From NCBI GenBank assembly GCA_937952415.1, contig CALFYT010000069.1, forward strand, positions 439 through 64,438: DNA of 64,000 bases, given 5' to 3'. The notes beneath the pieces are model-generated. The model was not told the origin of the DNA, searched no databases, and was given only the letters and a program-made list of their open reading frames with translations. Below, in pieces: positions 18,376 to 44,002 of the stretch. Each line of letters starts with the position of its first letter. The first letter of the stretch is position 1. The DNA is from an uncultured Planctomycetaceae bacterium (GTDB lineage Bacteria > Planctomycetota > Planctomycetia > Pirellulales > PALSA-1355). Both the position numbers and the translations under genes were made by a program.

Positions 18376-19851
18376 CTAGCGCAACACGCGATCGGTCGGT
18401 TCGGTCGATGAGCTGGACCACCGCACGCCGCCGGCGGGAAGGGCCCGCTGCCGGCCGGAGGCCGGCTGCCGCGCTGCCGGAACTTGCAACGAGGTCAAAT
18501 GCCGCGCACTCTGTGCTTCGCGATCCGCCGCCAATTGGCGAAGGAACTCCGGAGAGGCCCGATCGAGGCGAATGACTTCGCTCGGAGCGTTTGTGTCGTC
18601 CAGCGATCGGACAATGCAAATCACTTCCGCGCCGTCGCCCTGGCCGCGCAGCTCGGCCAGCGTGGCTTGCTCGCGGGCCGTCATCAGCGCGGCGTTTGCG
18701 GTGGCGTGAGCCATCGATTCCGCTTCCGACGTTTCGGGCATCGCCACCAAGACGGAGGGCGACGGACGCGCCGCGTAGACCGCAGTTAGTCCGGACCCAT
18801 CGAGGTGGCTATGAATCGACTCCAATGCGGCGTACAGACCTTCGTTGTCGGCCGGATCGGCCGCGTTACAAACGCCGATGACGTGGCCGTCGGTCGTGAA
18901 TAGTCCGCCACCACTGCGCCCCTCGACCGGCAATCCGGCCACTTGCAGATTAGGCGGGCCCAGGAACTTGTTCTTCGAATTGATCTGGCTGTCGATGGCC
19001 GTCGGCGGACCACCGTTGTTGCAACCCACCGTAATTACCGCGTCGCCTTGGGCGATCGCGCGGCCCTTGGGCGCCACGGGCGCCACGTGAACCGGCACGC
19101 CTGGACGAATGCTGACCAGCCCGAGGTCGCGCTTCAGGTCATAGCCGACCAACCGGCCGGGCAACTGCTTGGGATCGTCTGGGCCGAGCATGTCGACCAG
19201 GATCGTTCCTTTGCCCTGCGATTCGCGAAAGATGTGGCCGCAGGTCAAAATCAGGGCTTCGCCCTGCCGTGCGTCGATCAACGTGCCGGTGCCGTACGAG
19301 GAACCGGTGGCGTCTTCGATCTTTAGCCGCACGCTGGCCCGGACCAATTGTTGCCGGGTGGTCGATTGTCCGCCGTTGGGTGCCGGGTTGTCGTAAGCGC
19401 TCGGGCCGGTCGGTTCGTGGGAAGGGCTCGGTAGAACGGCGGTTGCGGGTTCGTTGTGGGCCGTTTCGATCGTGCGCGTGCTGCCCGGGGTATAGGAGTC
19501 GGGCGATTGAGCGCGGGCAATGCTCGAAGACCGGCCGTGTGGTTCGACTCCGGCGTTTTTGAACATCGCCACGAGCCGGTTCCGCCGCACCGCGCCAGTG
19601 ACGCGCGAAACTTCGCGCCCGTCAACCAGCAGCACGAAACTAGGAACCGATTGCACGTTGAAGCGGTCGGCCAAGGCCCGCTCGTGATCGATGTCTACCT
19701 TGCGCACCGGGTAGCCGGCACGCTGGAGCTGGGCGACAGTGCCTTCCATGGCGCGGCACGGCGCGCACCACGTAGCCTGAAAATCCAAGAGCACGGTATC
19801 ACTTGGTCCGGAGACAGCAAGGACCAAAGCGGCAATCTGCACTGAGACCAT
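18376..19851 (-). CDS. Thioredoxin domain fused to a trypsin-like (S1) serine protease domain
   Basis: 491-aa ORF with ATG at 19851. WCAPC redox motif (nt 19756-19770). The downstream protease domain has candidate triad residues H205 (LTCGHIF), D242 (KRDLGLV) and S313 (GRSGGGLF). About 140 aa at the C-terminus are unassigned. Confidence 0.85.
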   Translation of the reverse strand: MVSVQIAALVLAVSGPSDTVLLDFQATWCAPCRAMEGTVAQLQRAGYPVRKVDIDHERALADRFNVQSVPSFVLLVDGREVSRVTGAVRRNRLVAMFKNAGVEPHGRSSSIARAQSPDSYTPGSTRTIETAHNEPATAVLPSPSHEPTGPSAYDNPAPNGGQSTTRQQLVRASVRLKIEDATGSSYGTGTLIDARQGEALILTCGHIFRESQGKGTILVDMLGPDDPKQLPGRLVGYDLKRDLGLVSIRPGVPVHVAPVAPKGRAIAQGDAVITVGCNNGGPPTAIDSQINSKNKFLGPPNLQVAGLPVEGRSGGGLFTTDGHVIGVCNAADPADNEGLYAALESIHSHLDGSGLTAVYAARPSPSVLVAMPETSEAESMAHATANAALMTAREQATLAELRGQGDGAEVICIVRSLDDTNAPSEVIRLDRASPEFLRQLAADREAQSARHLTSLQVPAARQPASGRQRALPAGGVRWSSSSTEPTDRVLR

Positions 19852-22254: not shown

Positions 22255-25146
22255 TTACGGCTTGACCAACGTGAAATCTTCGGCCGTCGTGCCGAGATAG
22301 ATGTGGTCGAACAACGCATGCTCGCCATCGACCGGAGACAACGCCATGCCGGTCAACGTGAATTCTCCAAAGTCGGCGAACAAATCGCGCGTGACGACGG
22401 TAAACTCACCAGGCAATGCTTCATCGACCGCGACCGAAGCGCCGTAGCACTGGCCCGCCGGACCGGCATGGTAGCGGAAACTGGCCTTGCCGTCCCCTTC
22501 GGGACCGAACTTGCCGTCGTGACTTAGCTGCAAACAGATTGCCTCGCCGCCGTGCTTCTTCCAAGCAAAGCGGATGAATCGATACTCACCCGGCGCGGGG
22601 AACTCGCGAATCTTGACGCTCAGGTTCGGGATCGTCGGGTTGAAGCGTTGATCAGGCGTCACTTTGATGCTGGCCAGGCCCGAGTACTTTTCGTCGGCGA
22701 CGATGCTTGCTTTGCCGCCGCCCTCGGTCAAGGCGGCAAGAAACTCAACATGGTCTTCGAACACCGCCCGGGGTTGCTCCGGGGGCGGTTTTTCGCCAGG
22801 CACCACGTTGAGTAACAGCGGCACTGGCTGACTGCGGACAACCGACTTGGCGTTTTTCGGGTCGAGCTGGCTGGTGGCTACCAGCCGTACGTTGTCAAGT
22901 TTGCCCTCCGGCGCACCGTAACGCACAGCCAGGGGAAACTCGAATTCGGATTGGTCGGCCGGCACCTCGAACGTTACCGGCTTGCTCCCCTTGGGAAGCC
23001 CGCTGACACGCAGAATCACCGGTTTGTCGAAGCCTGCCGCGCGGACGACTTTGCCGGCGACCTTTCCCGTGTCGCCCAGGCCGGCTCGGGCTTCGATCGG
23101 GTCGGTCGCCGCCAGTTGGATGGACATTGGAGCCGCCGCCAGTAGGCGCCGCGCGGGAGTCACGGCGGATTGTATGACCTGCTTTCCATCGGCGCCCAGC
23201 AGCTCTGCGCGAATCGCCACGTCGTACGCGAGCCGGGGCAGATCCGATGGCACCAGGACTTGGGCCTCGATCTCATTTTGATCTGCGGCAATCGTCGGCG
23301 TGTCGGCCAACCGGATGCTGCGCTCCACGTCGTCGACTTCCTGTTCCTGGTTGTTCACTTTCACTTTCTTGCGCGGCATCACCTGTGACGTGAGCAATTG
23401 CAACCGAACCGAGCCGCTGGTGCCCTCCGCGCGAGCGACGCTTAGTTTGATTGGCAACGCAGTGCCGACCGATAGCCGAGTTTCGGAGCCAAACGGCTCC
23501 CAGGCTAGCGCAAGGGGGCTGGGGTTGGTCACGGCGACGGCAACTTCGTCCTCGAACCAGGGCAAGTGCTCAACCGCGCCGCTGACCGGCGGCGCGGCCA
23601 TCCGCGTAATCGGCGGATCGGCCTGCACACTGGTGCCAAGAATGGTCGCCAGCGATTGTCTGGGGTGCAGCCCGGGCGCCGTCAACGTTACCAGTGCCTG
23701 GGAGGCGCGGGCTGGGATTTCGGCGCCGTCGATCCCGACGCCTTCGGGCAAGTTCAAAAACGCGAGCTTGATCGGACCGTTGTAGCCGGACCGTTGTACG
23801 CGAACGCGCGCAAGCGCTGCGCCGTCTTTGGGAATCAGCAGCCGGTCCGATTCCAAGGATAAGGAAAAATCCGGCTGTCCGAGCGGCGTGATCCCGATGC
23901 GGTAGACGAAGTCCGGGCCGCCACGACCTTGCAGATCGCGCAGCGCCACAATTAGCGTGTCGGTGTCCTTGGGCACGGTGTAATCCAGGCCTGGATCGCG
24001 CGTCTCGCGACGGTCGTCGCTGGCGGCCAATTCGGCGCCGGAGGCGTTCTGAATGGATAGCACGCCGTCCACCGGAGATCCCGCACGGTTGGCCAACACG
24101 TCGAAACGCAGCTTCGCGCCGGGCGAAACCGTCAGACGATAGCGGTCTTGCTCACCGGCTTTTGCTAGCCGGCCGTTGATCGCTACGGGCGCCGCGGCAA
24201 GTTGTTGCGGCTCGCCGCCGGCGTCTTCTTCGACCAATTCGGCATGGCTGCTGACGATGATCTGGGGTTGGGCCCCTGTGAGCGGAAGCACATCTGCCGG
24301 CCACGGCGCGGGACGGATGATTCGCTGTCGGCCATCGGGAATCGACCATTTGACCGACGCGCGGGCCGATTCGGCCAAACTACCGCGCGGGAACTCGAAC
24401 GCGGCCTCTTTGTCCTGCTGGACGGCCAGGGGAAACGCTACGTCGGCAAACTGAAGGTCGCCCACTTTGAGCCGGAAGTAGCCCGGATCAGCCCCACGAT
24501 ACAGGGCGTCGTGTACTTCGATCGAATACGTACCATCGGCCGGCAACGTTGTCACAAGGCGGGCGTCGCCGGCCAGCGACGACTGACCCTGCGCCCAGGC
24601 TGTCGGCACGTTGCGTGGATCGTACAGACGAACAATAGGGTTGAGTTTCGCGCCTAAGCGCCGGCTTTCGACTTCGCAGACAACGCGCTGTCCTTTCTTG
24701 CCGCTGAACAACGTTTTCAAGACGGAGTCACCGCGCAGCTCGCCCGACATGGCCACGTCGGTGGCGACCAGCTCCGGTGCGAACGGGATCTGCGCCAGGT
24801 GGTCGACGCCTACCGCGACAGGTGTTGAAATGCCGCTGGCTGACGCAACCCGCAGCAGATAGATTCCCGGAGGCGTCTTGCCATCGAGCGCGAAGGTGAC
24901 TTCCAGGCGCTTGTCGGTGGCACCCGGGACAATCGTGTGCTTCGCTCCTGGAGCAGCAAACCAGATCCGCGGCTCGGGCAGCAGCTCGCGCCCCTCGATC
25001 ACCAGCGTCGTAACTCCGCCGGCTTGCAGCCCGCGGAGCGAGAGTTTGTCGATCGTCGGCGCCGCGTACGCGAGGTGCGCTGTCGCGGCGAGCAGCATCA
25101 CGCAAACGCCCAGCCAACAGATCATGCGAGGCAAACGAGACGACAT
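22255..25146 (-). CDS. Large secreted protein with repeated beta-sandwich-like domains (unknown function)
   Basis: 963-aa ORF with ATG at 25146. Signal peptide MSSRLPRMICWLGVCVMLLAATAHLAYA. Contains a segment like a pre-peptidase C-terminal domain (GDSVLKTLFSGKKGQRVVCEV..DGTYSIEVHDALYRG). No catalytic motif recognised. Confidence 0.8.
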   Translation of the reverse strand: MSSRLPRMICWLGVCVMLLAATAHLAYAAPTIDKLSLRGLQAGGVTTLVIEGRELLPEPRIWFAAPGAKHTIVPGATDKRLEVTFALDGKTPPGIYLLRVASASGISTPVAVGVDHLAQIPFAPELVATDVAMSGELRGDSVLKTLFSGKKGQRVVCEVESRRLGAKLNPIVRLYDPRNVPTAWAQGQSSLAGDARLVTTLPADGTYSIEVHDALYRGADPGYFRLKVGDLQFADVAFPLAVQQDKEAAFEFPRGSLAESARASVKWSIPDGRQRIIRPAPWPADVLPLTGAQPQIIVSSHAELVEEDAGGEPQQLAAAPVAINGRLAKAGEQDRYRLTVSPGAKLRFDVLANRAGSPVDGVLSIQNASGAELAASDDRRETRDPGLDYTVPKDTDTLIVALRDLQGRGGPDFVYRIGITPLGQPDFSLSLESDRLLIPKDGAALARVRVQRSGYNGPIKLAFLNLPEGVGIDGAEIPARASQALVTLTAPGLHPRQSLATILGTSVQADPPITRMAAPPVSGAVEHLPWFEDEVAVAVTNPSPLALAWEPFGSETRLSVGTALPIKLSVARAEGTSGSVRLQLLTSQVMPRKKVKVNNQEQEVDDVERSIRLADTPTIAADQNEIEAQVLVPSDLPRLAYDVAIRAELLGADGKQVIQSAVTPARRLLAAAPMSIQLAATDPIEARAGLGDTGKVAGKVVRAAGFDKPVILRVSGLPKGSKPVTFEVPADQSEFEFPLAVRYGAPEGKLDNVRLVATSQLDPKNAKSVVRSQPVPLLLNVVPGEKPPPEQPRAVFEDHVEFLAALTEGGGKASIVADEKYSGLASIKVTPDQRFNPTIPNLSVKIREFPAPGEYRFIRFAWKKHGGEAICLQLSHDGKFGPEGDGKASFRYHAGPAGQCYGASVAVDEALPGEFTVVTRDLFADFGEFTLTGMALSPVDGEHALFDHIYLGTTAEDFTLVKP

Positions 25147-25427: not shown

Positions 25428-26384
25428 TCACGGGTCGGCAAACGGATCGTCTTCTTCCGGCATTTCAGGTTCGGCGGCCGGTTCAGCACTGTCGGCCGGC
25501 GCAGCACTGTCGGCCGGTTCAAGACTGTCGGCCGGTTCCGCACTTGCGCCATCGTCGCCCGCCGGTGGATCGGCAAACGGATCGTCCTCGGCAGGCAGAT
25601 CGAGAGGATCGTCGGCGGGCATCTCGGCGGCCGGTGGATTCGCGGCCGGCGGTTCGGGTGTGGTGTTAGCCGCAGCGGGCGGTGCCACCGCCGGTTCGTT
25701 TGCCGCAGGCGGCACACTGGTTCCGGCGGGGGCGGCGGCTGGCGCGCCAGCAAACGGATCGGCCGCTGCCGGTGGTTCGGGCATCGGCGCCGGCGGAACC
25801 GCCGGCTGTGCAACAGCGGGAACAGGCACTTCCTTTGCGGGCACATCGGGCGGTGCGGCCGCATTGGGCTGTGCCGGCGCCGGCTCGATCGCGGTCGCGG
25901 GCGCCGCTTGTCCGGCCGGCGCGCGCAATACTTGCTGCTCGCGTCGCCGTAGCTGCTCGTATCGCGCCGCGTCGGCGCGGCGCTGTTCGGCGATCGCCGT
26001 GGCGCGGGCCAACGCACGATACCGTTCGATCTTCATTCGTGTCGAACCTTGAATCCGCTCCAAGGCCTTGCCCACCGGATAGTATTGGTCCGAGTCGCGC
26101 GTCTCCAGTCGGGCGGCAGTTCGAAACTCGTCGTCGCCGCCATACCCAAGACGCGATTTCACCAGGCCAAGATAGTAGTGGGCTCGCGGGTCGCGGCTGC
26201 CGGCGTTGATCGCGGCCTCAAGATCTGACATCGCCTGACTGTAGTCGCCCGAGAAGTAGTGATGGACTCCGCTTCCGTAGAACTCGTCCAACACGGCATC
26301 TTGCGCCGTGGCATTCGTAGCGCTACTGGCCACCAGCAAAAGCAAGCAGCCGCACGTTGCAAGAACCAGTCTGTGGGTCATCAT
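25428..26384 (-). CDS. Secreted protein: TPR-like N-domain plus a long Pro/Ala/Asp-rich tail with DPFA motifs
   Basis: 318-aa ORF. Signal peptide MMTHRLVLATCGCLLLLVASSATNATA. TPR-like helices (GDYSQAMSDLEAAINAGSRDPRAHYYLGLV). The tail has repeated PADS hexapeptides and three DPFA motifs, and ends EEDDPFADP. Confidence 0.75.
   Translation of the reverse strand: MMTHRLVLATCGCLLLLVASSATNATAQDAVLDEFYGSGVHHYFSGDYSQAMSDLEAAINAGSRDPRAHYYLGLVKSRLGYGGDDEFRTAARLETRDSDQYYPVGKALERIQGSTRMKIERYRALARATAIAEQRRADAARYEQLRRREQQVLRAPAGQAAPATAIEPAPAQPNAAAPPDVPAKEVPVPAVAQPAVPPAPMPEPPAAADPFAGAPAAAPAGTSVPPAANEPAVAPPAAANTTPEPPAANPPAAEMPADDPLDLPAEDDPFADPPAGDDGASAEPADSLEPADSAAPADSAEPAAEPEMPEEDDPFADP
25481..25552. repeat. 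In-frame 18-nt tandem repeat (4 units) inside the Pro-rich tail gene
   Basis: cggttcagcactgtcggc / cggcgcagcactgtcggc / cggttcaagactgtcggc / cggttccgcacttgcgcc. On the minus strand these encode (E/A)PADS(A/L) hexapeptides. Confidence 0.8.
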
Positions 26385-26677: not shown

Positions 26678-27343
26678 CTAGTCGAGCGGCTTGACCTGGA
26701 TGTTCTTGTAGTACGTCGTGCTTTTCGGGTCGTGAGCCTGGAGCGCGAACGTACCCTGATCGATCACTTCCAACTCGCCTGTCTTTCCTTTCGGCTCGGT
26801 GTACTCGGAAATGGTTTTCCCGTCGACGATCGTCTTGATCGTTTTCTTGTCCGCGTCGACGACGATCTCTTGGGTGAACCATTCGTTGTCTTTCGCCGGT
26901 GGGTCAAAGTTTTTCACCAGGTGATAGATGCTGCCGGTGCGCACTGGGTCGGTGTGTGAGTTGTTGACTTGTGCCTCGAAACCCGTACGGGGCCAGCCCC
27001 CTTCCTGAAACTTGGCATGGAAGTACATACCCGAGTTGCTGCCGGGCGTTGTCATCACATCGGCCTTGAAGCGAAAGCTCTTGAACTTGGGCGGGTTTTC
27101 CGGATCGTCGCCGACATAGAACAGGTGGCTGCGCGGACCGGCGGCCACGATCATGCCGTCTTTGACCTTCCATTGCTCGGCGTTCTCGCTGGCCTTCCAT
27201 CCGTCCAGCGACTTGCCGTCGAACAGACGGATCCAACCGTCATCGTCTTTGTCGTTGGCCTGCGATACGCTCGGCATAACGGACACGGTGAGCGCCGTTA
27301 CGAAAAACAGAATCAGGATGGTCCAGCGGGATGCGTACTTCAT
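26678..27343 (-). CDS. DUF1080 (3-keto-disaccharide hydrolase-like) domain protein, secreted
   Basis: 221-aa ORF with ATG at 27343. Signal peptide. Hallmark GWIRLFDGKSLDGWK..W.VKDG.I, GMYFHAKF, FALQAHDP..YYKNIQVKPL. Confidence 0.88.
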   Translation of the reverse strand: MKYASRWTILILFFVTALTVSVMPSVSQANDKDDDGWIRLFDGKSLDGWKASENAEQWKVKDGMIVAAGPRSHLFYVGDDPENPPKFKSFRFKADVMTTPGSNSGMYFHAKFQEGGWPRTGFEAQVNNSHTDPVRTGSIYHLVKNFDPPAKDNEWFTQEIVVDADKKTIKTIVDGKTISEYTEPKGKTGELEVIDQGTFALQAHDPKSTTYYKNIQVKPLD

Positions 27344-27424: not shown

Positions 27425-28138
27425 CTAGTCGAACGAGAGCGTCGCCTGGTCTTTGTGGCAGATGCGGCAGCTCTGGCTCACAGCCACCGTGGCATAGCTC
27501 GACACGGAATCGGAGTTGGCGTTGTGGCATTCGGTGCAACAAGCCAGGTTGTCCAAGTCTGCCGTGCCGAGCACCTGCTGCTGACCCACGGTGTACCGCG
27601 GAGCCTGGCTCGGTTGGTGCCGTGTGCACGCGGCGGTGTGCATTCCGGCCAGCAGCTTTCGCTCGGTTGGGGTGAATCGCGGTTGGTCATCGTCGGGGCG
27701 TACCACGACATGGCTATCGTTGATCGGCGGCACTGTGGAATATCCGTCGAGCGACCAGCGCGTGCTAACCAGCGAACCCAGCGTGACACCGAGGGCCAAT
27801 GCCGCCGCCAGCCCCCATGCCGACAGCGCGGAAAATCCACGTGACTGGCCGACGGGCTGCATCGGGCGCAGCTTGGCCCGTTTCGGTTCCATCTCGCGCG
27901 CATAGGATACGAGCGGTTGCGTGCGTTCCGCGCCCACCGAGCACCAATAGCCCGGCAGGTCCCGACTCTCCTCCGGACTGATGGCCTCTTGAAACAACTC
28001 AAGCGCCGGACGCAGGGCATCGGCCAGCCGCCGGCACTCCGGACAAACGCGAAGATGGGCCTCGACAGGCGTATCGCACGCTGTTCCGGTCGGGAACGGA
28101 CCACGTGTTAACACGTCGAATACTTGATCGCAATTCAT
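27425..28138 (-). CDS. Anti-sigma factor (zf-HC2) with a TM helix and a C-terminal domain carrying two CXXCH motifs
   Basis: 237-aa ORF whose ATG at 28138 lies 3 nt after the sigma-factor stop. H28-x3-C32-x2-C35 (AHLRVCPECRR) is the zf-HC2 anti-sigma signature. TM helix ~103-124 (ALSAWGLAAALALGVTLGSLV). CTECH (nt 27524-27538) and CRICH (nt 27455-27469). Confidence 0.85.
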   Translation of the reverse strand: MNCDQVFDVLTRGPFPTGTACDTPVEAHLRVCPECRRLADALRPALELFQEAISPEESRDLPGYWCSVGAERTQPLVSYAREMEPKRAKLRPMQPVGQSRGFSALSAWGLAAALALGVTLGSLVSTRWSLDGYSTVPPINDSHVVVRPDDDQPRFTPTERKLLAGMHTAACTRHQPSQAPRYTVGQQQVLGTADLDNLACCTECHNANSDSVSSYATVAVSQSCRICHKDQATLSFD

Positions 28139-28141
28139 TCC

Positions 28142-28819
28142 TCAATGCTCCTGACGCGCGGCGCCGGACGATTGGTCCTGCGCGCCGGCGTCTTCCAGCA
28201 AAAGTGCCATACGTTCCAGGCCGCAGCGCACGCGCGATTTGGCCGTGTTCAAACTGCACTGCATCGTGGCGGCAATTTCGTGAAACTTCAGTCCGCCAAA
28301 GAATCGCAGCCGCAACGCGTCCGCCTGCACCGTGCTCAACTGCCGCAGCACCGACTCAAGCGTCGCGGCGCGCTCCTTGGCCAGCAGTTTGCCAAGGGGC
28401 GACGTGTCGCCGGTTTCGACTGCTTCATCCAGCGAAACCCCATCGGCACCGGCGGGCGCCGGTTCGATCCGGGCGCGGCGCAGGCGGCGCTGGTAGTGTC
28501 CGCGACATTGGTTGAGCAGGATAGTCCAGAGCCAGGTACGGAAGTTGTACCGCGGGTCGTAACTGCCGCACGACTTGTAAGCGGCCATAAACGTCTCTTG
28601 GACCACGTCCTCCGCCCAATCGACTCGGCCCAGCCGGCTGCGGGCCACGCGCGTCAATGGGCCCTGATACCGGCGCACCAACTCTTCGAAGCAGTCGGTC
28701 TGGCCGGCGCGCACGCGCTCGACCAGCGCCGCGTCCGAGTCTGTTGGCCGCTGGTTCATGTTTGGTGTCCCCGCTTGCCCGCCGTAGGCGGCCCAATCGA
28801 CCTTGGGCGCATTCGTCAT
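28142..28819 (-). CDS. ECF (sigma-70 family) RNA polymerase sigma factor
   Basis: ORF 28142..28846 starts with TTG. ATG candidates are 28819 (MTNAPK) and 28759 (MNQRPTDSD). Region 2: LVERVRAGQTDCFEELVRRYQGPL..VVQETFMAAY. Region 4: LSTVQADALRLRFFGGLKFHEIAATMQCSLNTAKSRV. Confidence 0.9.
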   Translation of the reverse strand: MTNAPKVDWAAYGGQAGTPNMNQRPTDSDAALVERVRAGQTDCFEELVRRYQGPLTRVARSRLGRVDWAEDVVQETFMAAYKSCGSYDPRYNFRTWLWTILLNQCRGHYQRRLRRARIEPAPAGADGVSLDEAVETGDTSPLGKLLAKERAATLESVLRQLSTVQADALRLRFFGGLKFHEIAATMQCSLNTAKSRVRCGLERMALLLEDAGAQDQSSGAARQEH

Positions 28820-28957
28820 TTTTGCCAGCCTATCCGGTTCACGCAAGCAGTCGGAATGGGGGAATCGTTATGTGCGTTCCAGCCGGGCGGGCTCCCACCG
28901 TGGCGATTCGCCACACCGCGAGTGGGCGAGTTGGAATCGGCGAGGGCCCGAGCCAGG

Positions 28958-29539
28958 TCATGCCAGCATCTTTGCGAGCATGCCCACAAGATCGGCGCCC
29001 AGTTGCTCGACCGCGGATTGCGCGGCGTGATCTTTGAGCGCGCCGTCGTCGGCGAAAGCGTCGTGCGCGTGCGAAATCGACTTGGTGGCCGGCAGGACGA
29101 GCGTGCCAAGATTGCCCAGGATGGCCCGCAGGTGGACCAGTCCGCGCAGCCCGCCAAGTCCGCCCGGCGATGCGCTCATCACGACCGCGACCTTGCCGGT
29201 GAAGCATGCCAGCGGCGGCTCTCCCTCGACGTGGCGCGACGTCCAATCGATCGTGTTCTTCAGCAATGCCGTGATCGTGCTGTTATGCTCCGGAGACGCA
29301 ATCAGAAAACCGTCGTGCGCGAGCATCAAATCCTTGAACTTCCGCGCCGCATCAGGCAGGCCGTGCTCGGCCTCGTACTCCTGGTCGAACAGCGGCATCG
29401 GATAGTCTCTTAGGTCGACGACGTTGACCTGACCGCCGGCCAAGCTCGCGCCTTCAGCAGCGATGCGCACTAACTTCTTGTTCAACGAATCGCGACGCGC
29501 GCTTCCGGCAAACGCCAAGATCTTGGGCTTAGGGGGCAT
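28958..29539 (-). CDS. NADPH-dependent FMN reductase family protein
   Basis: ORF 28958..29575. The ATG at 29539 gives MPPKPKILAFAGSARRDSLNKKL (the flavodoxin-like GSxRxxSxN motif). ..FLIASPEHNSTITALLKNTIDW. Confidence 0.88.
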   Translation of the reverse strand: MPPKPKILAFAGSARRDSLNKKLVRIAAEGASLAGGQVNVVDLRDYPMPLFDQEYEAEHGLPDAARKFKDLMLAHDGFLIASPEHNSTITALLKNTIDWTSRHVEGEPPLACFTGKVAVVMSASPGGLGGLRGLVHLRAILGNLGTLVLPATKSISHAHDAFADDGALKDHAAQSAVEQLGADLVGMLAKMLA

Positions 29540-29927: not shown

Positions 29928-30260
29928 ATGCCGCCGTTTACGAGCCACATTTTTGTCTGTTGCAATCGGCGCGAGCCGGGACACCACCGTGGTTGTTGCG
30001 ACCCCGACGGCGCCGGCCGGTTGCGGGAGTGCTTCAAGCAGGAACTGAAGCGGCATAATCTTGGGACGACTGTGCGGGCCAACTCGGCCGGCTGCCTGGA
30101 CCAGTGCGAGCTGGGACCGACCGTGGTCGTTTATCCGCAGGCGATTTGGTATGGCGGCGTGCGGCCGGAAGATGTGCCCCGGATCGTTGAACAAACCGTG
30201 ATCGGCGGGCTCGTCTTGGAGGACTTGCGCATCCCCGACGAGAAGCTCAACGCCCGTTAG
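29928..30260 (+). CDS. Thioredoxin-like [2Fe-2S] ferredoxin family protein
   Basis: Within ORF 29724..30260, with ATG at 29928. MPPFTSHIFVCCNRREPGHHRGCC..ANSAGCLDQCELGPTVVVYPQAIWYGGV matches the (2Fe-2S) ferredoxin domain, including the Cys ligands. Confidence 0.85.
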   Translation: MPPFTSHIFVCCNRREPGHHRGCCDPDGAGRLRECFKQELKRHNLGTTVRANSAGCLDQCELGPTVVVYPQAIWYGGVRPEDVPRIVEQTVIGGLVLEDLRIPDEKLNAR

Positions 30261-30363
30261 CCGCGCCCAAAGTGGCCTGGACAGTCGTCCGAACGGCCCC
30301 AAAGTGCGCCGCCACAACCGGTTTCGTGCCGCGGGGGGTGGTGCATGAAGTGGTGGAAGTTTC

Positions 30364-30393
30364 TTGCCAGTCGCCCCACTGTCAAGGTATATT
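30364..30393 (+). promoter_or_regulatory. Candidate sigma-70-type promoter upstream of the PSCyt1-WD40 gene
   Basis: TTGCCA (30364-30369), 18 nt, TATATT (30388-30393), within the 408-bp non-coding gap. Implies a leader of roughly 270 nt. Confidence 0.25.
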
Positions 30394-30668
30394 CGGGGAT
30401 TGGCAGCGACGGCGACGCAACGCGGCGAATCAGTGCCCGTGCATGGTTTGGTCCTACCTTGCGTGCGCAGCGGCGACGCGCTGCCAGGAGACAAGACGTT
30501 GCCCCGACATGCACCCCGCGGCGGCCTGGCACGAGTTGCTCGTGGCTGCCGTGTGGCCCGCCTCCCGAAGACGACCTGCCGAACAAAACGCCGCATGCGC
30601 CGAAATTCGATGGCGCGCAACGCGGACCGACTGTCCAAAGAATTCAAACGGTATTAGGGATCGCCAAA

Positions 30669-32114
30669 ATGATGCCTGCACGACACACGTTGGGCCTGCT
30701 CCCCGTCGTCGTACTTTCGGCTGCTGCGCTGGCGCCGATCTCGGCGGTGGCGGCCGACGAAAGTGCCGGTGACTCGGCCGCGTCCAATGTCAGCTACTTT
30801 CGTGACATCCGGCCCATCTTCCAAGCCCAGTGCCAAGGCTGTCATCAGCCCGCCAAGCCGATGGGCGAATTGGTGATGACCACCCGCGAAGGGTTGCTCA
30901 AAGGCGGCGAAAGCGAGATGCCGGCCGTAGTTCCCGGCAAGCCCGACGAGAGCTATCTCCTGGATCAGATTACGCCGACCGATGGTTCGGCCGAAATGCC
31001 CAAGGAAAAGGACCCGCTGACCGAAGACCAGATCAACAAGATTCGCCAGTGGATCGTTGATGGCGCGGTGGACGACACACCAGCATCGGTCCAACGGGTC
31101 GTAGACGCCGACAACCCGCCGACATACGAGGCGGCTCCCGTCTTGACGGCGTTGGATTTTTCGCCCGACGAAAAGATACTCGCCGTGAGCGGATATCACG
31201 AGACCCTCTTGCACCATGCCGACGGTTCGGGGCTTGTGGCCCGACTGGTTGGACAATCGGAGCGGATTGAATCATTGGCCTTCTCGCCCGACGGAACGCT
31301 GTTGGCCGCCAGCGGCGGCAGCCCGGGACGCTTTGGCGAGGTGCAGGTTTGGGACGTTGCGTCGCGGACCCTGAAGCACTCGGTGCCCGTGACGTTCGAT
31401 ACGGTTTATGGAGTCAGTTGGTCGGCCGACGGAAGCAAAATCGCGTTTGGTTGTGCGGACAACACGCTACGAGCCATCAACGCCAACGACGGCAAACAAT
31501 TGCTCTATCAAGGTGCGCACAGCGACTGGGTGCTTGACACCGTGTTTTCAACCGATGCGAAGTACCTGATCTCGGTCAGTCGCGATCGGTCGATGAAACT
31601 GGTCGAGGTGGCCACCGAGCGTTTCGTCGACAACATCACCAGCATCACGCCCGGCGCACTCAAAGGCGGACTGGCCGCGGTCGACCGGCATCCGGGCAAG
31701 AACGAGTTGCTCATCGGCGGAGCGGACGGCATTCCGAAGGTGTACCAAATGCTTCGCACCAAGGATCGCAAGATCGGCGACGACTACAACTTGATCAAGG
31801 CCTATGACGCGGTGCCCGGTCGAATCTTCGACATCGACTTCAATGCGGATGGCTCGCAGTTCGTCGTCGGAAGCAGCCTGGACCGAACGGGCGAAGTTCG
31901 CATCTACGAAACGGACAGCGGCAAAATGTTAACGAAGCTCGAAGGACAAAAGGGCGCCGTTTTTTGCGTTCGTTTCAGCCCCAGTGGCAAGGTAGTCGCG
32001 TCAGCCGGGTTTGATGGCATGGTGCGGCTGAACGACGCACAAAGCGGCAAGCTCATCAAGGAGTTCTCTCCGGTGCCCGAGGGGGCCACGGTCGTTGCGT
32101 CGGCAGGAGATTGA
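30669..32114 (+). CDS. Planctomycete cytochrome c (PSCyt1) domain fused to a WD40 beta-propeller
   Basis: Within ORF 30345..32114. The ATG at 30669 gives the signal peptide MMPARHTLGLLPVVVLSAAALAPISAVAA. FRDIRPIFQAQCQGCHQPAKP (CXXCH) ..PGKPDESYLLDQI. WD40-like blades follow (LAFSPDGTLLAASGG..VQVWD, VSWSADGSKIAFG, VRFSPSGKVVASAGFDGMVRL). Confidence 0.88.
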   Translation: MMPARHTLGLLPVVVLSAAALAPISAVAADESAGDSAASNVSYFRDIRPIFQAQCQGCHQPAKPMGELVMTTREGLLKGGESEMPAVVPGKPDESYLLDQITPTDGSAEMPKEKDPLTEDQINKIRQWIVDGAVDDTPASVQRVVDADNPPTYEAAPVLTALDFSPDEKILAVSGYHETLLHHADGSGLVARLVGQSERIESLAFSPDGTLLAASGGSPGRFGEVQVWDVASRTLKHSVPVTFDTVYGVSWSADGSKIAFGCADNTLRAINANDGKQLLYQGAHSDWVLDTVFSTDAKYLISVSRDRSMKLVEVATERFVDNITSITPGALKGGLAAVDRHPGKNELLIGGADGIPKVYQMLRTKDRKIGDDYNLIKAYDAVPGRIFDIDFNADGSQFVVGSSLDRTGEVRIYETDSGKMLTKLEGQKGAVFCVRFSPSGKVVASAGFDGMVRLNDAQSGKLIKEFSPVPEGATVVASAGD

Positions 32115-32181
32115 GTTTAGTAACACGCAAAGTGCCGGCACCGGAGTCTGTGCTGGCCAATTTATCGAGCAGGAATTCGTC

Positions 32182-35100
32182 ATGAAGCACACGTTCCTCA
32201 CGGTTGGACTTCTAGGTTGTGTCGTGGCGCTGTCGATCGGCGGCCATGCCGCTGCCGACACCAGCGCTCAACTTCCCGAAGGCGCGAAGATCGTTTCGCT
32301 CGAGGTGCTGCCCGCCGAAATCGCACTGGACAATCACTATGCCTATGCCCAGGTGCTGCTGACCGCCGAACTCGACAACGGCGATCGGGTCGACGTGACG
32401 CGTCTGGCCAAAGCGACCCTCAATGACGATCTGGCAACGGTGTCCGAAGCGGGCGTCGTCCGGCCCAAGGCGGACGGCACCGGACAAATCACGTTCGAGG
32501 TCGCGGGGGCGTCGGTGACGGCTCCTCTTTCGGTCTCGGGAGAATCGACCGAACGTCCTGTCAGCTTCGTGCGCGACGTGATGCCCGTGTTGTCCAAGAT
32601 GGGTTGCAATGCCGGCACATGCCACGGGTCGCTCAATGGCAAGAACGGTTTCAAGCTGTCGCTACGCGGCTACGATGCGATTTTCGACCATCGGGCCTTG
32701 ACCGACGACATCGAAGGCCGGCGCATCAACAGGGCAGCGCCGGACCAAAGCCTGATGTTGCTCAAGCCGGCTGGTGTGATCCCGCATGTCGGCGGCGTGC
32801 TCACTGAGCCGGGTCATCCCTACTACGAAGCGATTCGATCGTGGATCCTCAACGGCGTGCAGCTCGACATGGAGAGCCCCAGGGTCGCGAGCATCGAAAT
32901 CTTCCCCAAGAATCCAATCGTGCCACAGCCGGGCATGTCGCAACAGATGCGGCTGCTAGCGACGTACACCGATGGCTCGGTGCGCGACGTGACGCTTGAG
33001 GCGTTTATCGAGAGCGCCAATACCGAAGTCGCTGAACCGAACAAGACAGGCCTGATTTCGGTGATTCGCCGCGGCGAAGCCGCCGTCTTGGCGCGCTACG
33101 AAGGCGCGTACATCGCCACGACGCTCACCGTCATGGGCGATCGTAGTGGGTACGCGTGGCAGGAAGTGCCGGCGAACAACTATGTCGACGAACTGGTGTA
33201 TGCCAAGCTGAAGCGCGTCAAGTCGATGCCGAGCGAACTTTGCACCGACGGCGAGTTCGTGCGACGTGTCTGGCTTGACTTGACGGGCCTGCTCCCGCCT
33301 GCCGACGACGTACGCGCCTTCTTGGCCGATCCGCGCGAATCGAAAGTCAAGCGCGACGAACTGATCGATCGGCTCGTCGGCAATCGCGATTACGTCGAGA
33401 TGTGGACCAACAAGTGGGCCGATCTGTTGCAGGTGAACAGTAAGTTTTTGGGTCAAGAAGGAGCGTTTGCGCTGCGGCGTTGGATTCAACAAGCGGTGGC
33501 CTCGAACATGCCGTACGACGAATTTGTCTACGCCGTGCTGACCGCCAGCGGTTCCACCATCGACAATCCTCCGGCTGCTTACTACAAGATCCTGCGCACG
33601 CCGGAAGAGACGATGGAAAACACCACGCAGCTCTTCCTGGGCGTGCGATTCAATTGCAACCATTGCCACGACCATCCGTTCGAGCGCTGGACCCAGGGGC
33701 AGTACTGGCATCTGTCGGCGTACTTTGCCCAAATCGGTCGCAAGGCAGACCCCGCGGCCGGCGGAAAGATGCTTGGCGGCACCGCGGTCGAAGGCGGAAA
33801 ACCGCTGATCGAAACGATCTACGACACCGGGTCCGGAGAAGTAACCGACGGCGCCACCGGGCAAACGGCCGCACCGTCTTTCCCGTACGAGCACGATGAT
33901 CTAGCGCCGGATACGGCGTCGCGCCGCGAGCAATTGGCCCGCTGGGTGACTTCGGAGGAGAACGAATACTTTGCCAAGAGCTACGTGAATCGGTTGTGGG
34001 GTTATCTGTTCGGCCGCGGCATCATCGAGCCGATCGACGACATCCGCGCCGGCAACCCACCGACCAACCCCGTATTGTTGGAGCGGCTGACGCGCGAGTT
34101 TATCGAGAGCGGTTTCGACACCCAACAAATCCTACGTACGATTTGTAAGTCGCGTACGTATCAAACGTCGATCGCGACCAACAAGTGGAACGAGGACGAC
34201 GAGATCAATTTCTCGCACGCGATTGCCCGCCGTTTGCCGGCCGAAGTTTTGTACGATGCGATCAAGCGTGGCACCGGCTCGAGCAGCCGTTTGCCCGGAG
34301 TACCCGAAGGCTATCGAGCCACGCAATTGCCCGACGTGGCGTTGAAGCTGCCCAGCGGATTCTTCGAGGTTTTCGGGCGTCCGGCCCGCGAGAGCGCCTG
34401 CGAGTGTGAGCGCTCCAGCGGCATGATGCTCGGGCCGGTGATGACGTTGGTCAACGGCCCGACGGTGGCCGACGCGATCGCCGATCCGAACAACGCGATC
34501 GCGGATCTCGTCGCTTCGCACACCGAAGACGGCGAAGTCGTCAACGAGCTATTCATGCGCCTCTTGTCACGCGAGCCCACGGCGACCGAATTGGAGTCGG
34601 GCATCGCGGCGATGCACGCCGGCGGTGATGAACTCGACCCGTTGCGAAAGGAGTTGGCCGAATACGAAGCAAAGTTGGTCGAGAAGCAGGTCGCGTGGGA
34701 AGCCACGCAGATCCCGCCCTCGTGGACCGTGGTATCGCCCGCGCAGCTTGAGTCCAGCATGGGCGCGACGTTCGCCAAACAGGACGACGGTTCCGTGCTG
34801 GTGACGGGCGCCAACGGCAAGGGCCAATACATCGTGTCGCTTGACACGCCGGTCAAGAACGTTACCGCGCTACGGCTCGAAGTGCTGGCCGACGATCGCC
34901 TGCCGGGTCGTGGGCCGGGCCGTGCACCCAACGGCAACTTTGTGCTGACCGAGCTGACGGCCGAGGCGGCATCGAAGGCCGATCCGGCGAGCCTCAAAAA
35001 GTTGGCGCTCGGTCGCGGCACCGCCGACTTCGAGCAAAACGGCTTTCCCGCCAGCTACGCGATCGATCAACGACCGAAGACGGGCTGGGCAATCTCGCCC

Positions 35101-35493
35101 GAGGTCGGCAAGGAGCACTGGGCCGTGTTCGAGATGCTCGACGACGTTAGCCTCGACGAGCAGACGCGGATCGTCTTGAAGCTCGACCAACAGTTCGACG
35201 ACCGACACACGATCGGCAAGTTCCGTTTTTCGGTTACGACGGCGGCACGGCCGCTCAACTATCCGAAGCTGCCGGAAAATATCGCGGCGATCGTAGCCAT
35301 CGCCGCGGATCAGCGCAGTGATGCGCAGAAGGCTGAGCTGGCTGAGTACTACCGTTCGCGCGACGCGGACTGGAAGCGGATGAGCGAGGCGGTTACCGCG
35401 GCAGCCGAGCAGCAGAAGAATCATCGTTTAACCGGCGCGCAGGATTTGGCCTGGGCCCTGATCAACAGCCCGGCGTTCTTGTTCAATCGGTAA
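32182..35493 (+). CDS. DUF1549 (PSCyt2) / DUF1553 (PSD1) domain protein with an N-terminal Ig-like domain and an inserted beta-sandwich domain
   Basis: Within ORF 32095..35493. The ATG at 32182 gives the signal peptide MKHTFLTVGLLGCVVALSIGGHAAA. CNAGTCHGSLNGKNGFKLSLRGYD. DUF1549 motif FLGVRFNCNHCHDHPFERW. DUF1553-type C-terminal end WALINSPAFLFNR. Confidence 0.88.
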   Translation: MKHTFLTVGLLGCVVALSIGGHAAADTSAQLPEGAKIVSLEVLPAEIALDNHYAYAQVLLTAELDNGDRVDVTRLAKATLNDDLATVSEAGVVRPKADGTGQITFEVAGASVTAPLSVSGESTERPVSFVRDVMPVLSKMGCNAGTCHGSLNGKNGFKLSLRGYDAIFDHRALTDDIEGRRINRAAPDQSLMLLKPAGVIPHVGGVLTEPGHPYYEAIRSWILNGVQLDMESPRVASIEIFPKNPIVPQPGMSQQMRLLATYTDGSVRDVTLEAFIESANTEVAEPNKTGLISVIRRGEAAVLARYEGAYIATTLTVMGDRSGYAWQEVPANNYVDELVYAKLKRVKSMPSELCTDGEFVRRVWLDLTGLLPPADDVRAFLADPRESKVKRDELIDRLVGNRDYVEMWTNKWADLLQVNSKFLGQEGAFALRRWIQQAVASNMPYDEFVYAVLTASGSTIDNPPAAYYKILRTPEETMENTTQLFLGVRFNCNHCHDHPFERWTQGQYWHLSAYFAQIGRKADPAAGGKMLGGTAVEGGKPLIETIYDTGSGEVTDGATGQTAAPSFPYEHDDLAPDTASRREQLARWVTSEENEYFAKSYVNRLWGYLFGRGIIEPIDDIRAGNPPTNPVLLERLTREFIESGFDTQQILRTICKSRTYQTSIATNKWNEDDEINFSHAIARRLPAEVLYDAIKRGTGSSSRLPGVPEGYRATQLPDVALKLPSGFFEVFGRPARESACECERSSGMMLGPVMTLVNGPTVADAIADPNNAIADLVASHTEDGEVVNELFMRLLSREPTATELESGIAAMHAGGDELDPLRKELAEYEAKLVEKQVAWEATQIPPSWTVVSPAQLESSMGATFAKQDDGSVLVTGANGKGQYIVSLDTPVKNVTALRLEVLADDRLPGRGPGRAPNGNFVLTELTAEAASKADPASLKKLALGRGTADFEQNGFPASYAIDQRPKTGWAISPEVGKEHWAVFEMLDDVSLDEQTRIVLKLDQQFDDRHTIGKFRFSVTTAARPLNYPKLPENIAAIVAIAADQRSDAQKAELAEYYRSRDADWKRMSEAVTAAAEQQKNHRLTGAQDLAWALINSPAFLFNR

Positions 35494-35800
35494 CCGCCAC
35501 CGGCGTCCGCTGCTATTGCCGCGCCGCGCGTGACACGTGTGCCCGGCGCCGTCCCGTACGGCGACGTGGCCAGATCGCTACGAGTGTGCGATGCGTGCGA
35601 CGTGGTGAGCCGAGCGGCGCGCCACGCTTGCCAAAGTGCAGGTCCCGGCGGACAATGTTTCTCAGCACACGGGCCTTAGTCCATCGAACACGAAGGACGT
35701 TCGGCACGTCGGTTACGATCGTGGTTCGGTGATTCCGGACGCGCAGCCGTTCGGTTCGAGGACCTTCGCTGGGAACAGATTCGCACGACAGGCCTTTCTC

Positions 35801-36676
35801 GTGTACGTCGAAACGCACTCGCTCACGAAGCGCTACGGGCACTTTACAGCGCTTGGAGATTTCACGTTCGGTGTCGATCAAGGCGAGGTTGTCGGTCTGC
35901 TGGGTCCGAATGGAGCCGGCAAGACGACCCTCTTGCGGATGCTGATGGGATACTTGCGGCCGACCAGCGGCTCGGCCACGATCGACGGCCTGGACGTTTA
36001 CCGCCAGTCGACCGAAGTGCACAAGCGGGTTTCGTATTTGCCGGGCGAGGCGCGTCTGTTTCGCACGATGCGCGGCCGCGAGATCGTTGACTTCTTCACG
36101 TCGGTTCGCGGCGATGGCAGCCGGAAGCTGGCCGTGGAGTTGGCCTCGGAACGATTCGGACTCGATCTTGCCCGACCGGTCGCAGCCATGTCGACCGGCA
36201 TGCGGCAGAAGTTGGCACTGGCCGTTACGCTGGCCGTTGATACGCCGTTGGTCATTCTCGACGAGCCGACTTCAAACCTGGATCCCACGGTCCGTGCCGA
36301 CGTTGGCGCGCTGGTGGCCGAACAGCGGCAACAGGGACGCACCATCATCTTCTCGTCGCATGTTATTTCCGAAGTCGAACAGGTTTGCGATCGGGTGCTA
36401 ATTCTTCGCTCCGGTTCGTTGGTCCACACGCAGACCATCGGGGAACTGCGCCGTCGGCATCACATTCGGGCCCAGTTGACCGGTCCGCTGCCGCCGCTGC
36501 CCGAATCGTTCAACGGGCAGGTCGCGGTCTCGCGTGGCGAGGCGGGAGACCTGTTGATCGAAACGCCCGGCGAGCTATCGGGCCTGCTGGGTTGGCTGGC
36601 GACGCTTCCGCTGGCGGAAGTGCAAATCGAGCCGGTCGGACTCCAAGCCCTGTACGACCAGTATCACGCAACCTGA
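35801..36676 (+). CDS. ABC transporter ATP-binding protein
   Basis: ORF 35636..36676. No internal ATG precedes the Walker A motif. An in-frame GTG at 35801 gives MYVETHSLTKRYG. Walker A GPNGAGKTT, signature MSTGMRQKL, Walker B LVILDEPTSNLD, H-loop SSHV. Confidence 0.88.
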   Translation: MYVETHSLTKRYGHFTALGDFTFGVDQGEVVGLLGPNGAGKTTLLRMLMGYLRPTSGSATIDGLDVYRQSTEVHKRVSYLPGEARLFRTMRGREIVDFFTSVRGDGSRKLAVELASERFGLDLARPVAAMSTGMRQKLALAVTLAVDTPLVILDEPTSNLDPTVRADVGALVAEQRQQGRTIIFSSHVISEVEQVCDRVLILRSGSLVHTQTIGELRRRHHIRAQLTGPLPPLPESFNGQVAVSRGEAGDLLIETPGELSGLLGWLATLPLAEVQIEPVGLQALYDQYHAT

Positions 36677-36701
36677 CTCCGCACGTTGTTGCAGGCCTCC
36701 G

Positions 36702-43912: not shown

Positions 43913-43976
43913 GATGCTCGTTCGCTTGCTGAACTGGGGAATGGGGGCAGATATTGCGGGCTGCGAGCGAATAAAG

Positions 43977-44002
43977 TTTACAATGGTAAGTACCATTATA
44001 AT
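43977..44002. promoter_or_regulatory. AT-rich palindrome and promoter-like hexamers in the divergent region between the sulfite reductase gene and folD
   Basis: TTTACAATGGTAAGTACCATTATAAT. Inverted repeat AATGGTA-AG-TACCATT (43982-43997). TTTACA (43977-43982) and TATAAT (43997-44002) are only 14 nt apart, which is suboptimal spacing. This is the only AT-rich patch in the 300-bp intergenic region. Confidence 0.3.

Follow-up and report, generated by a model that had tools for sequence, protein, structure and literature searches.

A predicted di-haem c module on a membrane-bound ECF anti-sigma factor of uncultured Pirellulales planctomycetes

A gene for a candidate anti-sigma factor lies at positions 27425..28138, on the minus strand, of a 64,000-nucleotide stretch of DNA from an uncultured Planctomycetaceae bacterium of the Pirellulales (assembly GCA_937952415.1, contig CALFYT010000069.1, positions 439 to 64,438), called the window below. 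The gene runs from an ATG start codon to a stop codon at 27425-27427 and encodes a predicted single-pass membrane protein of 237 residues. An identical protein has already been called on public contigs (P0001). Immediately upstream, on the same strand, lies the gene of the cognate extracytoplasmic function (ECF) sigma factor (28142..28819). The sigma stop codon TGA (28142-28144) is followed by GGA and then by the ATG at 28138, which agrees with the 3-nt gap reported in an initial annotation made from the sequence without database searches. That annotation described the protein as an anti-sigma factor with two CXXCH haem c attachment motifs in a periplasmic domain and suggested that a di-haem sensor would couple periplasmic redox state, or O2, NO or CO, to ECF-dependent transcription. 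The coordinates given there for CTECH, CRICH and HxxxCxxC were all recovered in the open reading frame (ORF) of 237 residues.

The protein can be divided into four parts, all encoded on the minus strand. Residues 1-66 (MNCDQVFDVLTRGPFPTG...LPGYWC; 27941..28138) form the predicted cytoplasmic anti-sigma domain, with the zinc-binding anti-sigma (ZAS) motif H28-x3-C32-x2-C35 (H28-LRV-C32-PE-C35; 28034..28057), which is kept in every full-length homologue. A transmembrane helix follows at residues ~102-124 (27767..27835), as indicated by Kyte-Doolittle hydrophobicity, charge bias and AlphaFold2. It is connected by an acidic periplasmic linker (residues ~125-156; 27671..27766) of low conservation, with a predicted local distance difference test (pLDDT) score below 50 at residues 137-150, to the predicted di-haem c module (residues ~157-230; 27449..27670). 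This module consists of the helix LA.LP.A-C171, the segment C200-C201-x2-C204-H205, 18 intervening residues and the segment C224-x2-C227-H228. The first haem-attachment motif, CTECH (C201-T-E-C204-H205), occupies residues 201-205 (27524-27538) and is immediately preceded by C200 (27524..27541 with the motif). The second, CRICH (C224-R-I-C227-H228), occupies residues 224-228 (27455-27469). C171 (codon 27626..27628) is an extra near-invariant cysteine and a candidate distal haem ligand or disulfide partner of C200. Residues 125-237 contain six cysteines, five histidines and one methionine. At least two CXXCH motifs would be expected by chance with P ~4e-5, according to 200,000 composition-preserving shuffles of the protein, and their conservation among homologues goes well past what chance would give.

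The strongest argument for the anti-sigma identity is a genetic one, namely the ECF sigma gene immediately upstream. The initial assignment of that gene was borne out by Pfam (Sigma70_r2 1e-16, Sigma70_ECF 6e-12, Sigma70_r4_2 2e-8) and by a match to NCBIfam TIGR02937 sigma70-ECF of 85 bits, above the cut-off of 42.9. The sigma gene also lies immediately upstream in all five other contigs examined, as it does in L001-L006. In other genomes the two genes are adjacent or overlapping, and the sigma gene is directly upstream in most of 80 loci retrieved from a genome scan, distant subgroups included. It is the sole consistently shared neighbour of the distant di-CXXCH subfamilies, and a neighbourhood comparison found no regulon common to them beyond it.

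The N-terminal domain itself points in the same direction. Conservation is highest in this part of the protein, where 39 columns within residues 1-64 are invariant among 114 full-length homologues. C3, H28, C32 and C35 are invariant and are candidate zinc ligands, C3 lying 25 residues before H28. AlphaFold2 predicts helices at residues 3-12, 20-31, 33-52 and 55-58 (pLDDT means of 70-94 for blocks of ten residues over residues 1-60). The same H-x3-C-x2-C helical N-terminal domain is found in the ZAS anti-sigma factors RsrA of Streptomyces coelicolor, ChrR of Rhodobacter sphaeroides, RslA of M. tuberculosis and RsiW of B. subtilis. The spacing of C3, H28, C32 and C35 reproduces the ligand spacing of ChrR (H6-H31) and RsrA (C11-H37). 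As with these proteins, the gene is directly downstream of an ECF sigma gene, with translational coupling probable, and the single-pass, N-in topology is that of RsiW and RslA. Unlike them, the family has a planctomycete-specific N-terminus (MNCDQVFD.LTRGPFPTG) and stays below the zf-HC2 threshold. The query scores 14.5 bits against the Pfam zf-HC2 cut-off of 22.2, with 32 of 87 family members matching at E<0.1, and 26 bits against 100 for NCBIfam NF052375 'antisigma', with 63 of 87 matching at E<0.01. The anti-sigma identity proposed in the initial annotation is supported by the invariant motif and the adjoining sigma gene, the curated profiles giving sub-threshold matches only. By sequence, the protein is a ZAS-type class I ECF anti-sigma factor from a divergent, planctomycete lineage-specific family, for which sigma binding and inhibition as well as zinc binding are predicted.

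A second subfamily of ~135-138 residues (MDCDQVFMILTRGPFPTG...) shares ~70-75% identity with the anti-sigma domain. Its members stop right after the transmembrane helix and do not carry the periplasmic module. They were found in loci L036, L041, L044-L046, L049-L051, L057, L058, L061-L063 and L066-L068, and further in L070, L073, L074, L076, L078, L079, L082 and L086, at about 7001-7410 in most cases. The short paralogues of 137 residues have no sigma neighbour. L051, for instance, lacks an adjacent sigma gene and has small, uncharacterised ORFs downstream, and its upstream neighbours resemble genes for a ribosome-silencing factor and an arginyl-tRNA synthetase (read from translations only). 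The short paralogues may be orphan or decoy anti-sigma proteins.

The conservation of the CXXCH motifs was examined in several sequence collections. A homologue search of 5.8 billion proteins (E of at most 1e-3) gave 1058 hits. None of them is informatively named ('hypothetical protein' or nameless), and their source names point to metagenome-assembled genomes (MAGs) of Pirellulales and Planctomycetota. In the 114 full-length homologues (44-86% identity), both CXXCH motifs, HxxxCxxC, C3 and C171 are invariant, and C200 is conserved at 99%. An exhaustive hidden Markov model search of 1.84 billion cluster representatives with a profile of the C-terminal domain found 76 proteins. About 66 of these, some of them fragments, share the architecture of the query, i.e., the planctomycete-specific N-terminus, the ZAS motif, the transmembrane helix and two C-terminal CXXCH motifs. 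A genome scan, in which each GTDB species was represented by one genome, yielded 127 pattern matches and 104 confirmed relatives, and the best 80 of the 104 were kept as loci. All 80 come from Pirellulales/Planctomycetia MAGs, and every long member among them carries both CXXCH motifs. HxxxCxxC and both CXXCH motifs are also kept in the 66 further cluster representatives and in the genome-derived loci.

The CXXCH motifs are likewise 100% conserved across a set of 110 non-redundant C-terminal domains, the most divergent of which share ~16-20% identity with the query. The sole invariant or near-invariant columns are C171 (98%), C200 (97%), C201, C204, H205, C224, C227 and H228. In an alignment of 73 domain sequences (A3), the mean column identity is 22% and the lowest identity to the query is 16%. 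Conservation among orthologues had been named in the initial annotation as a check of its reading; both motifs proved invariant in more than 200 homologues, all from uncultured Pirellulales or other Planctomycetia genomes. A homologue search with the C-terminal domain gave short fragments of the same family only and was uninformative on other architectures. The only apparent exceptions are three loci with frameshifted genes in which the di-CXXCH module continues in another frame (L053, 7714-7821; L075, 7438-7701; L080, 7662-7775). They reflect either errors of assembly or pseudogenes, and 'MFD' begins the names of two of the three MAGs.

Haem c is attached only outside the cytoplasm. In the query, the best 19-residue Kyte-Doolittle window starts at residue 102 with a score of 1.73, the next best reaching 0.39. 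Over the 114 homologues, the mean best score is 1.69 versus 0.68 for the next segment. Lysine and arginine average 2.4 in the 15 residues before the transmembrane segment versus 1.1 after it, and aspartate and glutamate average 0.4 before versus 1.1 after it. AlphaFold2 puts the membrane helix at residues 104-131. The single helix at residues ~103-124 of the initial annotation is hence recovered as one hydrophobic segment at ~102-124. The CXXCH domain is predicted to be extracytoplasmic (N-in/C-out) because there is a single hydrophobic segment, the charges follow the positive-inside rule, and the N-terminal domain must meet a cytoplasmic sigma factor. A cytoplasmic placement was rejected on the same three grounds. 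Hydrophobicity and charge bias thereby support the topology initially proposed.

The six cysteines and two histidines of the module could alternatively bind zinc, copper or another metal, or form three disulfides, the CXXCH pattern being coincidental. The CXXC-(19)-CXXC arrangement also follows the spacing logic of zinc ribbons. A profile search of the PDB with the C-terminal domain gave one weak zinc-ribbon match (ribosomal protein L33, E 0.039). In Pfam, Zn_ribbon_ACC is weakly matched by 3 of 87 members. Moreover, no distal histidine or methionine is conserved, and the AlphaFold2 model of the module is poor. Against this, the histidine after both CXXC motifs is 100% invariant, which neither zinc ribbons nor disulfides require, and the domain is predicted to lie where CXXCH is the substrate signature of haem ligation. 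The matches to cytochromes are weak one by one, yet they agree. In Pfam, 61 of 87 members weakly match Cytochrome_C7, 54 Paired_CXXCH_1, 15 an MtrC/MtrF domain and 10 cytochrome c3. In NCBIfam, cytochrome families of the tetra-, di-, tri- and deca-haem kind are matched below threshold, and the weak PDB matches are almost all c-type cytochromes.

Outside the family, the exhaustive search of 1.84 billion representatives matched about nine cytochromes, which carry 3-24 CXXCH motifs (at least 11 in seven of them), and no zinc-ribbon protein. Most of the cross-matching cytochromes hold repeats like CLSCHASGAQAVPASHKGRTNETCQSCH, with the same 23-residue spacing as in CTECHNANSDSVSSYATVAVSQSCRICH of the family. 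An hhalign comparison of the family domain with eight multihaem paired-CXXCH repeats gave a probability of 95.7% and an E-value of 8.9e-9, gapless over 32 columns. The AlphaFold2 model of the periplasmic module is mostly helical and places the CXXCH motifs in helical segments, not in the beta-hairpin knuckles of zinc ribbons. The zinc-ribbon class was rejected on the rarity and weakness of its matches, their absence from the exhaustive search, the helical motifs and the predicted periplasmic location. The initial annotation had named a zinc-ribbon relationship as one of the outcomes that would overturn it, and the relatives found outside the family are multihaem cytochromes c only. A domain without haem is accordingly improbable. 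The closest non-family relatives of the haem module are the paired-CXXCH units of P0133 (943 residues, from the representative library), a multihaem cytochrome with 24 CXXCH motifs in tandem units of ~50 residues.

The predicted di-haem reading is thus favoured by the invariance of the CXXCH motifs, their predicted extracytoplasmic position and their likeness to paired-CXXCH cytochromes, haem binding being deduced from sequence. Haem binding is likely, and two haems are predicted to be held covalently by C201/C204 and C224/C227, the proximal ligands being H205 and H228.

The distal side of the haems appears to differ from that of the related cytochromes. The multihaem repeats have a histidine 8 residues before and another 15 residues after the first cysteine, which are presumably the distal ligands of bis-His haems. 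The family counterparts are A193 and the near-invariant A216, the histidine between the motifs aligning with A216 in the hhalign comparison. No other histidine, methionine, lysine or tyrosine is conserved in the 110 C-terminal domains. Since the distal histidine is replaced by A216 and no other histidine or methionine is conserved, the haems are predicted either to have the thiolates of C171 and C200 as sixth ligands (two His/Cys haems) or to be five-coordinate, with a C171-C200 disulfide. They would not be ordinary electron-transfer haems; a labile or missing sixth ligand is more characteristic of haem sensors than of electron carriers.

A divergent subclade (P0198-P0210, L052, L081, L083) sheds some light on the two extra cysteines. 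C200 is always replaced in it (by S, T, M, A, K or N). C171 is kept in 9 of the 13 members, sometimes as C-x-H, and in 12 of the 13 a new histidine, part of an HW/HY motif, stands in the stretch that separates the CXXCH motifs. This looks like an exchange of distal ligands. L052 and L083 (= P0198) lack both C171 and C200, which had suggested a purely structural C171-C200 disulfide. That option is weakened by the retention of C171 in 9 of 13 members after the loss of C200. Ligand roles for C171 and C200 are weakly favoured because a cysteine needed only for pairing should not persist alone in the periplasm. His/Cys ligation has been described for the c-haem sensor Tll0287, and in GSU0582/0935 the distal ligand changes with the redox state (PMC12889525, PMC8396549).

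The surroundings of the sigma/anti-sigma pair were compared in an orthologous group of at least 45% identity (L001-L027; 23 non-redundant loci). The gene of a secreted protein of 221 residues with a DUF1080/3-keto-disaccharide-hydrolase fold (26678..27343, minus strand; Pfam PF06439 9e-39) starts 81 nt past the anti-sigma stop codon. It keeps this position throughout the orthologous group as well as in several of the distant subgroups, and it is probably part of the same operon. Further downstream, also on the minus strand, follow two conserved neighbours, a secreted TPR-like protein of 318 residues (25428..26384) and a secreted protein of 963 residues with PPC domains (22255..25146). The 318-residue protein has a short TPR-like head and a long acidic tail rich in proline, alanine and aspartate with repeated 'DDPFADP' and 'EPADS' units. 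All three products have hydrophobic, signal-peptide-like N-termini (read by eye from the sequences), and some distant subgroups keep the genes. Upstream of the sigma gene, an NADPH-dependent FMN reductase (28958..29539, minus strand; Pfam FMN_red 2e-40) is conserved in the orthologous group. The main block there reads, in one orientation, FMN reductase, sigma factor, anti-sigma factor, DUF1080 protein, TPR-like protein and 963-residue PPC protein.

A promoter-like element was identified at 28818..28846 (minus strand), with TTGCGT (28841-28846) and AAAAAT (28818-28823) separated by 17 nt. The consensus upstream of the sigma genes of L001-L027 is cTTGCnT-N17-(g/a)acAAAAATag, preceded by an A/T-rich 'tttg..gaaat'. 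The pattern TTGCnn-N16-18-nA(A/G)AAT has 25 matches on both strands of 574 kb covering the 23 orthologous loci, and 17 of these lie just upstream of the sigma gene, one per locus (17 of 23 loci). In the window, the start codon of the public sigma gene call (ATG 28819) overlaps with the -10 box; therefore, the real start is probably ATG 28759 (MNQRPTDSD..., 205 residues).

On the plus strand, a divergent conserved block of three genes (29928..35493) encodes a thioredoxin-like [2Fe-2S] ferredoxin (29928-30260), a PSCyt1 (CXXCH)-WD40 protein (30669-32114) and a PSCyt2/PSD1 protein with DUF1549/DUF1553 (32182-35493). In the orthologous group, the PSCyt1-WD40 and PSCyt2/PSD1 pair, which is typical of planctomycetes and in which PSCyt1 is the CXXCH 'planctomycete cytochrome c', keeps strict synteny with the sigma/anti-sigma operon. 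ABC transporter genes (35636-37565) come after it. Further along the window are genes for a cytochrome P450 (40083-41420) and a sulfite/nitrite reductase (NIR_SIR, 42140-43996), for which no link was seen.

The FMN reductase, the [2Fe-2S] ferredoxin and the PSCyt1 CXXCH protein are conserved redox neighbours, and they would also suit a module that binds haem without acting as the sensor. Sigma release would then be governed by the cytoplasmic ZAS domain (C3, C21, H28, C32, C35, C66) through thiol oxidation and zinc loss, as in RsrA, and the di-haem module would be an electron-transfer or docking element, e.g., toward the neighbouring PSCyt proteins. The five or six conserved N-terminal cysteines, which include an RsrA-like C-H-C-C ligand set, are consistent with this, as are the short paralogues of the anti-sigma domain without a periplasmic part. 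However, many distant members (9-Cys forms) have lost C21 and C66 but retain the six periplasmic cysteines, and the haem module is the defining feature of all sigma-linked members. A membrane-tethered di-haem module without bis-His ligation is an unlikely electron wire, and the redox neighbours are absent from distant subfamilies. Such a division of roles is considered quite unlikely.

Beyond the PPC gene, the orthologous layout continues with a response regulator and a histidine kinase and then with a fusion of thioredoxin and Trypsin_2. The fusion protein, with a DegP/DegS-like serine protease part, has 491 residues (18376-19851, minus strand). Its gene lies ~7 kb away and is kept in 7 of the 23 non-redundant loci (L006, L008, L018, L020, L025, L026 and L002, the last being the window's own contig). 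As a speculative candidate, it may be a thiol-state-dependent periplasmic protease acting on CXXCH proteins.

Such a protease would suit a domain that binds haem but senses no external ligand and reports, as a substrate of the maturation pathway, on haem maturation or supply. When haem, iron or reduced CXXCH thiols run short, the apo domain would stay unfolded and be degraded, and sigma would be released. Apocytochromes c are unstable, and conservation in the module is confined to the residues of haem attachment and two cysteines. The drift of the remaining columns (mean identity 22%) is what would be expected if holo-versus-apo folding alone were under selection. On the other hand, the DUF1080, TPR-like, PPC and FMN reductase neighbours show no obvious connection with haem or cytochrome biogenesis, and the thioredoxin-protease gene is unlinked in distant subfamilies. 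Furthermore, the near-invariance of C171 and C200 would go unexplained unless both are needed for folding. This explanation is rather unlikely, though less so than the non-haem and non-sensor alternatives.

The reading that is preferred here, with a probability of roughly 0.6, is that of a ZAS anti-sigma factor with a periplasmic di-haem switch for redox state or small ligands, which would gate the stability of the anti-sigma factor and hence the release of sigma. After export, a cytochrome c maturation system would attach two haems to the module. At rest, the cytoplasmic domain would keep sigma bound at the membrane. The small periplasmic module would loosen or refold when the haems change state, possibly through reduction or oxidation with loss of a cysteine ligand or through binding of O2, NO, CO or sulfide. 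The altered module would then be open to periplasmic (site-1) and subsequently intramembrane proteolysis, as in other single-pass anti-sigma factors. The freed sigma factor would transcribe its own operon, which in the orthologous group comprises the genes of the sigma factor, the anti-sigma factor, the DUF1080 protein, the TPR-like protein and the secreted 963-residue protein. A more specific form is tentative and carries less weight. In it, C171 and C200 would be the thiolate ligands of two His/Cys haems, and sigma would be freed by proteolysis once reduction, a gas or sulfide displaces the thiolate or once haem attachment fails.

Several points weigh against the preferred reading. Every anti-sigma and cytochrome family match falls below curated thresholds, and no solved structure matched the anti-sigma domain by sequence in a full-length PDB profile search. 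The pLDDT of the module is low, with block means of 49-74 for residues 151-237 in the full-length model and a mean of 54 when modelled alone, and fold searches with it were therefore uninformative (they returned noise). Neighbouring genes differ in distant subfamilies. The promoter-like element resembles a sigma-70-type promoter more than a classical ECF promoter, and no second copy was found in the locus, so that further targets cannot be defined from the motif. The proteolytic release of sigma is assumed by analogy only. Lastly, the parts of the window that were scanned (10-22 kb and 32-46 kb) showed no cytochrome c maturation genes. As for the haem c capacity of the lineage, the PSCyt1 CXXCH protein is encoded at the same locus, and a cultured Pirellulales species has bc1, caa3, ACIII and NrfAH (PMC6995999).

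The components of the proposed switch have counterparts in known systems. Periplasmic c-haem sensor domains occur on methyl-accepting chemotaxis proteins, histidine kinases and GGDEF proteins (PMC12889525, PMC8396549). Like the module described here, those of the GSU0582 type and Tll0287 carry haem c in the extracytoplasmic input domain of a membrane transducer. Their distal ligation is also non-standard or labile, with a water/Met switch in the GSU proteins and His/Cys in Tll0287, and their CXXCH segment, too, was apparently borrowed from cytochromes. The differences are nonetheless clear. The c-haem sensors (PF11845) bind one haem in a PAS/Cache fold of ~130 residues, in which the single CXXCH is on an inserted helix, whereas two haems are predicted here in a mostly helical module of ~75 residues that is not Cache-like. 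The module is not a member of sCache_heme, and only 1 of 87 members has a weak Tll0287-like match (E 0.012, Pfam); it may nevertheless work like the sCache_heme sensors. The outputs of the c-haem sensors are phosphorelay, chemotaxis and c-di-GMP, and the anti-sigma output predicted here is absent from the architectures in a recent survey (PMC12889525).

The paired-CXXCH repeats (PF09699, PF14522, e.g., P0133) share the 23-residue spacing and a similar local sequence (C..CH.a...VP.....sCq.CH). Unlike in these repeats, a single pair is tethered by a transmembrane helix to an anti-sigma domain, A193 and A216 replace histidine, and two extra near-invariant cysteines are present. Characterised anti-sigma factors, for their part, are not reported to have an extracytoplasmic di-CXXCH, cytochrome-like module of this kind. 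An ECF sigma/anti-sigma pair with haem-dependent output is known in HasI/HasS with HasR, in which HasS is of the FecR type, binds no haem and is signalled by the TonB-dependent haem transporter HasR (PMC3984077). Here, in contrast, the anti-sigma factor itself is predicted to carry the covalent haem cofactor. No c-haem or CXXCH anti-sigma factor was found in the literature, ECF classification papers included, just as the initial annotation knew of no characterised di-haem example. The parts are hence of known kinds (a ZAS domain and a paired-CXXCH unit), and it is the combination and the predicted ligation that are new.

Sigma/anti-sigma pairs of the ECF type make up the third major mode of signal transduction in bacteria, and the inputs of most anti-sigma factors are unknown. 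If the thiolate-ligated form of the proposed switch is true, the family would be a class of haem-based sensor not recognised before in ECF signalling. The protein would then be the first case of an anti-sigma factor that receives its input through a covalent cofactor, and its module would offer a minimal model, of ~75 residues, of thiolate-switch c-haem sensing. With its unusual predicted ligation, the module is small enough for direct expression and spectroscopy. The family, which is restricted to planctomycetes of the Pirellulales type, comprises more than 1000 uncharacterised sequences. It also offers an entry to a conserved but functionally opaque envelope locus of these bacteria, with its DUF1080, TPR-like and PPC proteins and the neighbouring PSCyt proteins. 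The bacteria that carry it are found across oxic-anoxic transitions. The finding would extend haem c sensing to anti-sigma factors from kinases, chemoreceptors and c-di-GMP enzymes, the sole outputs for which sensing by periplasmic covalent haem c is known, and it suggests a new route by which extracellular redox or gas sensing may be linked to gene expression in the planctomycetes of soil and water.

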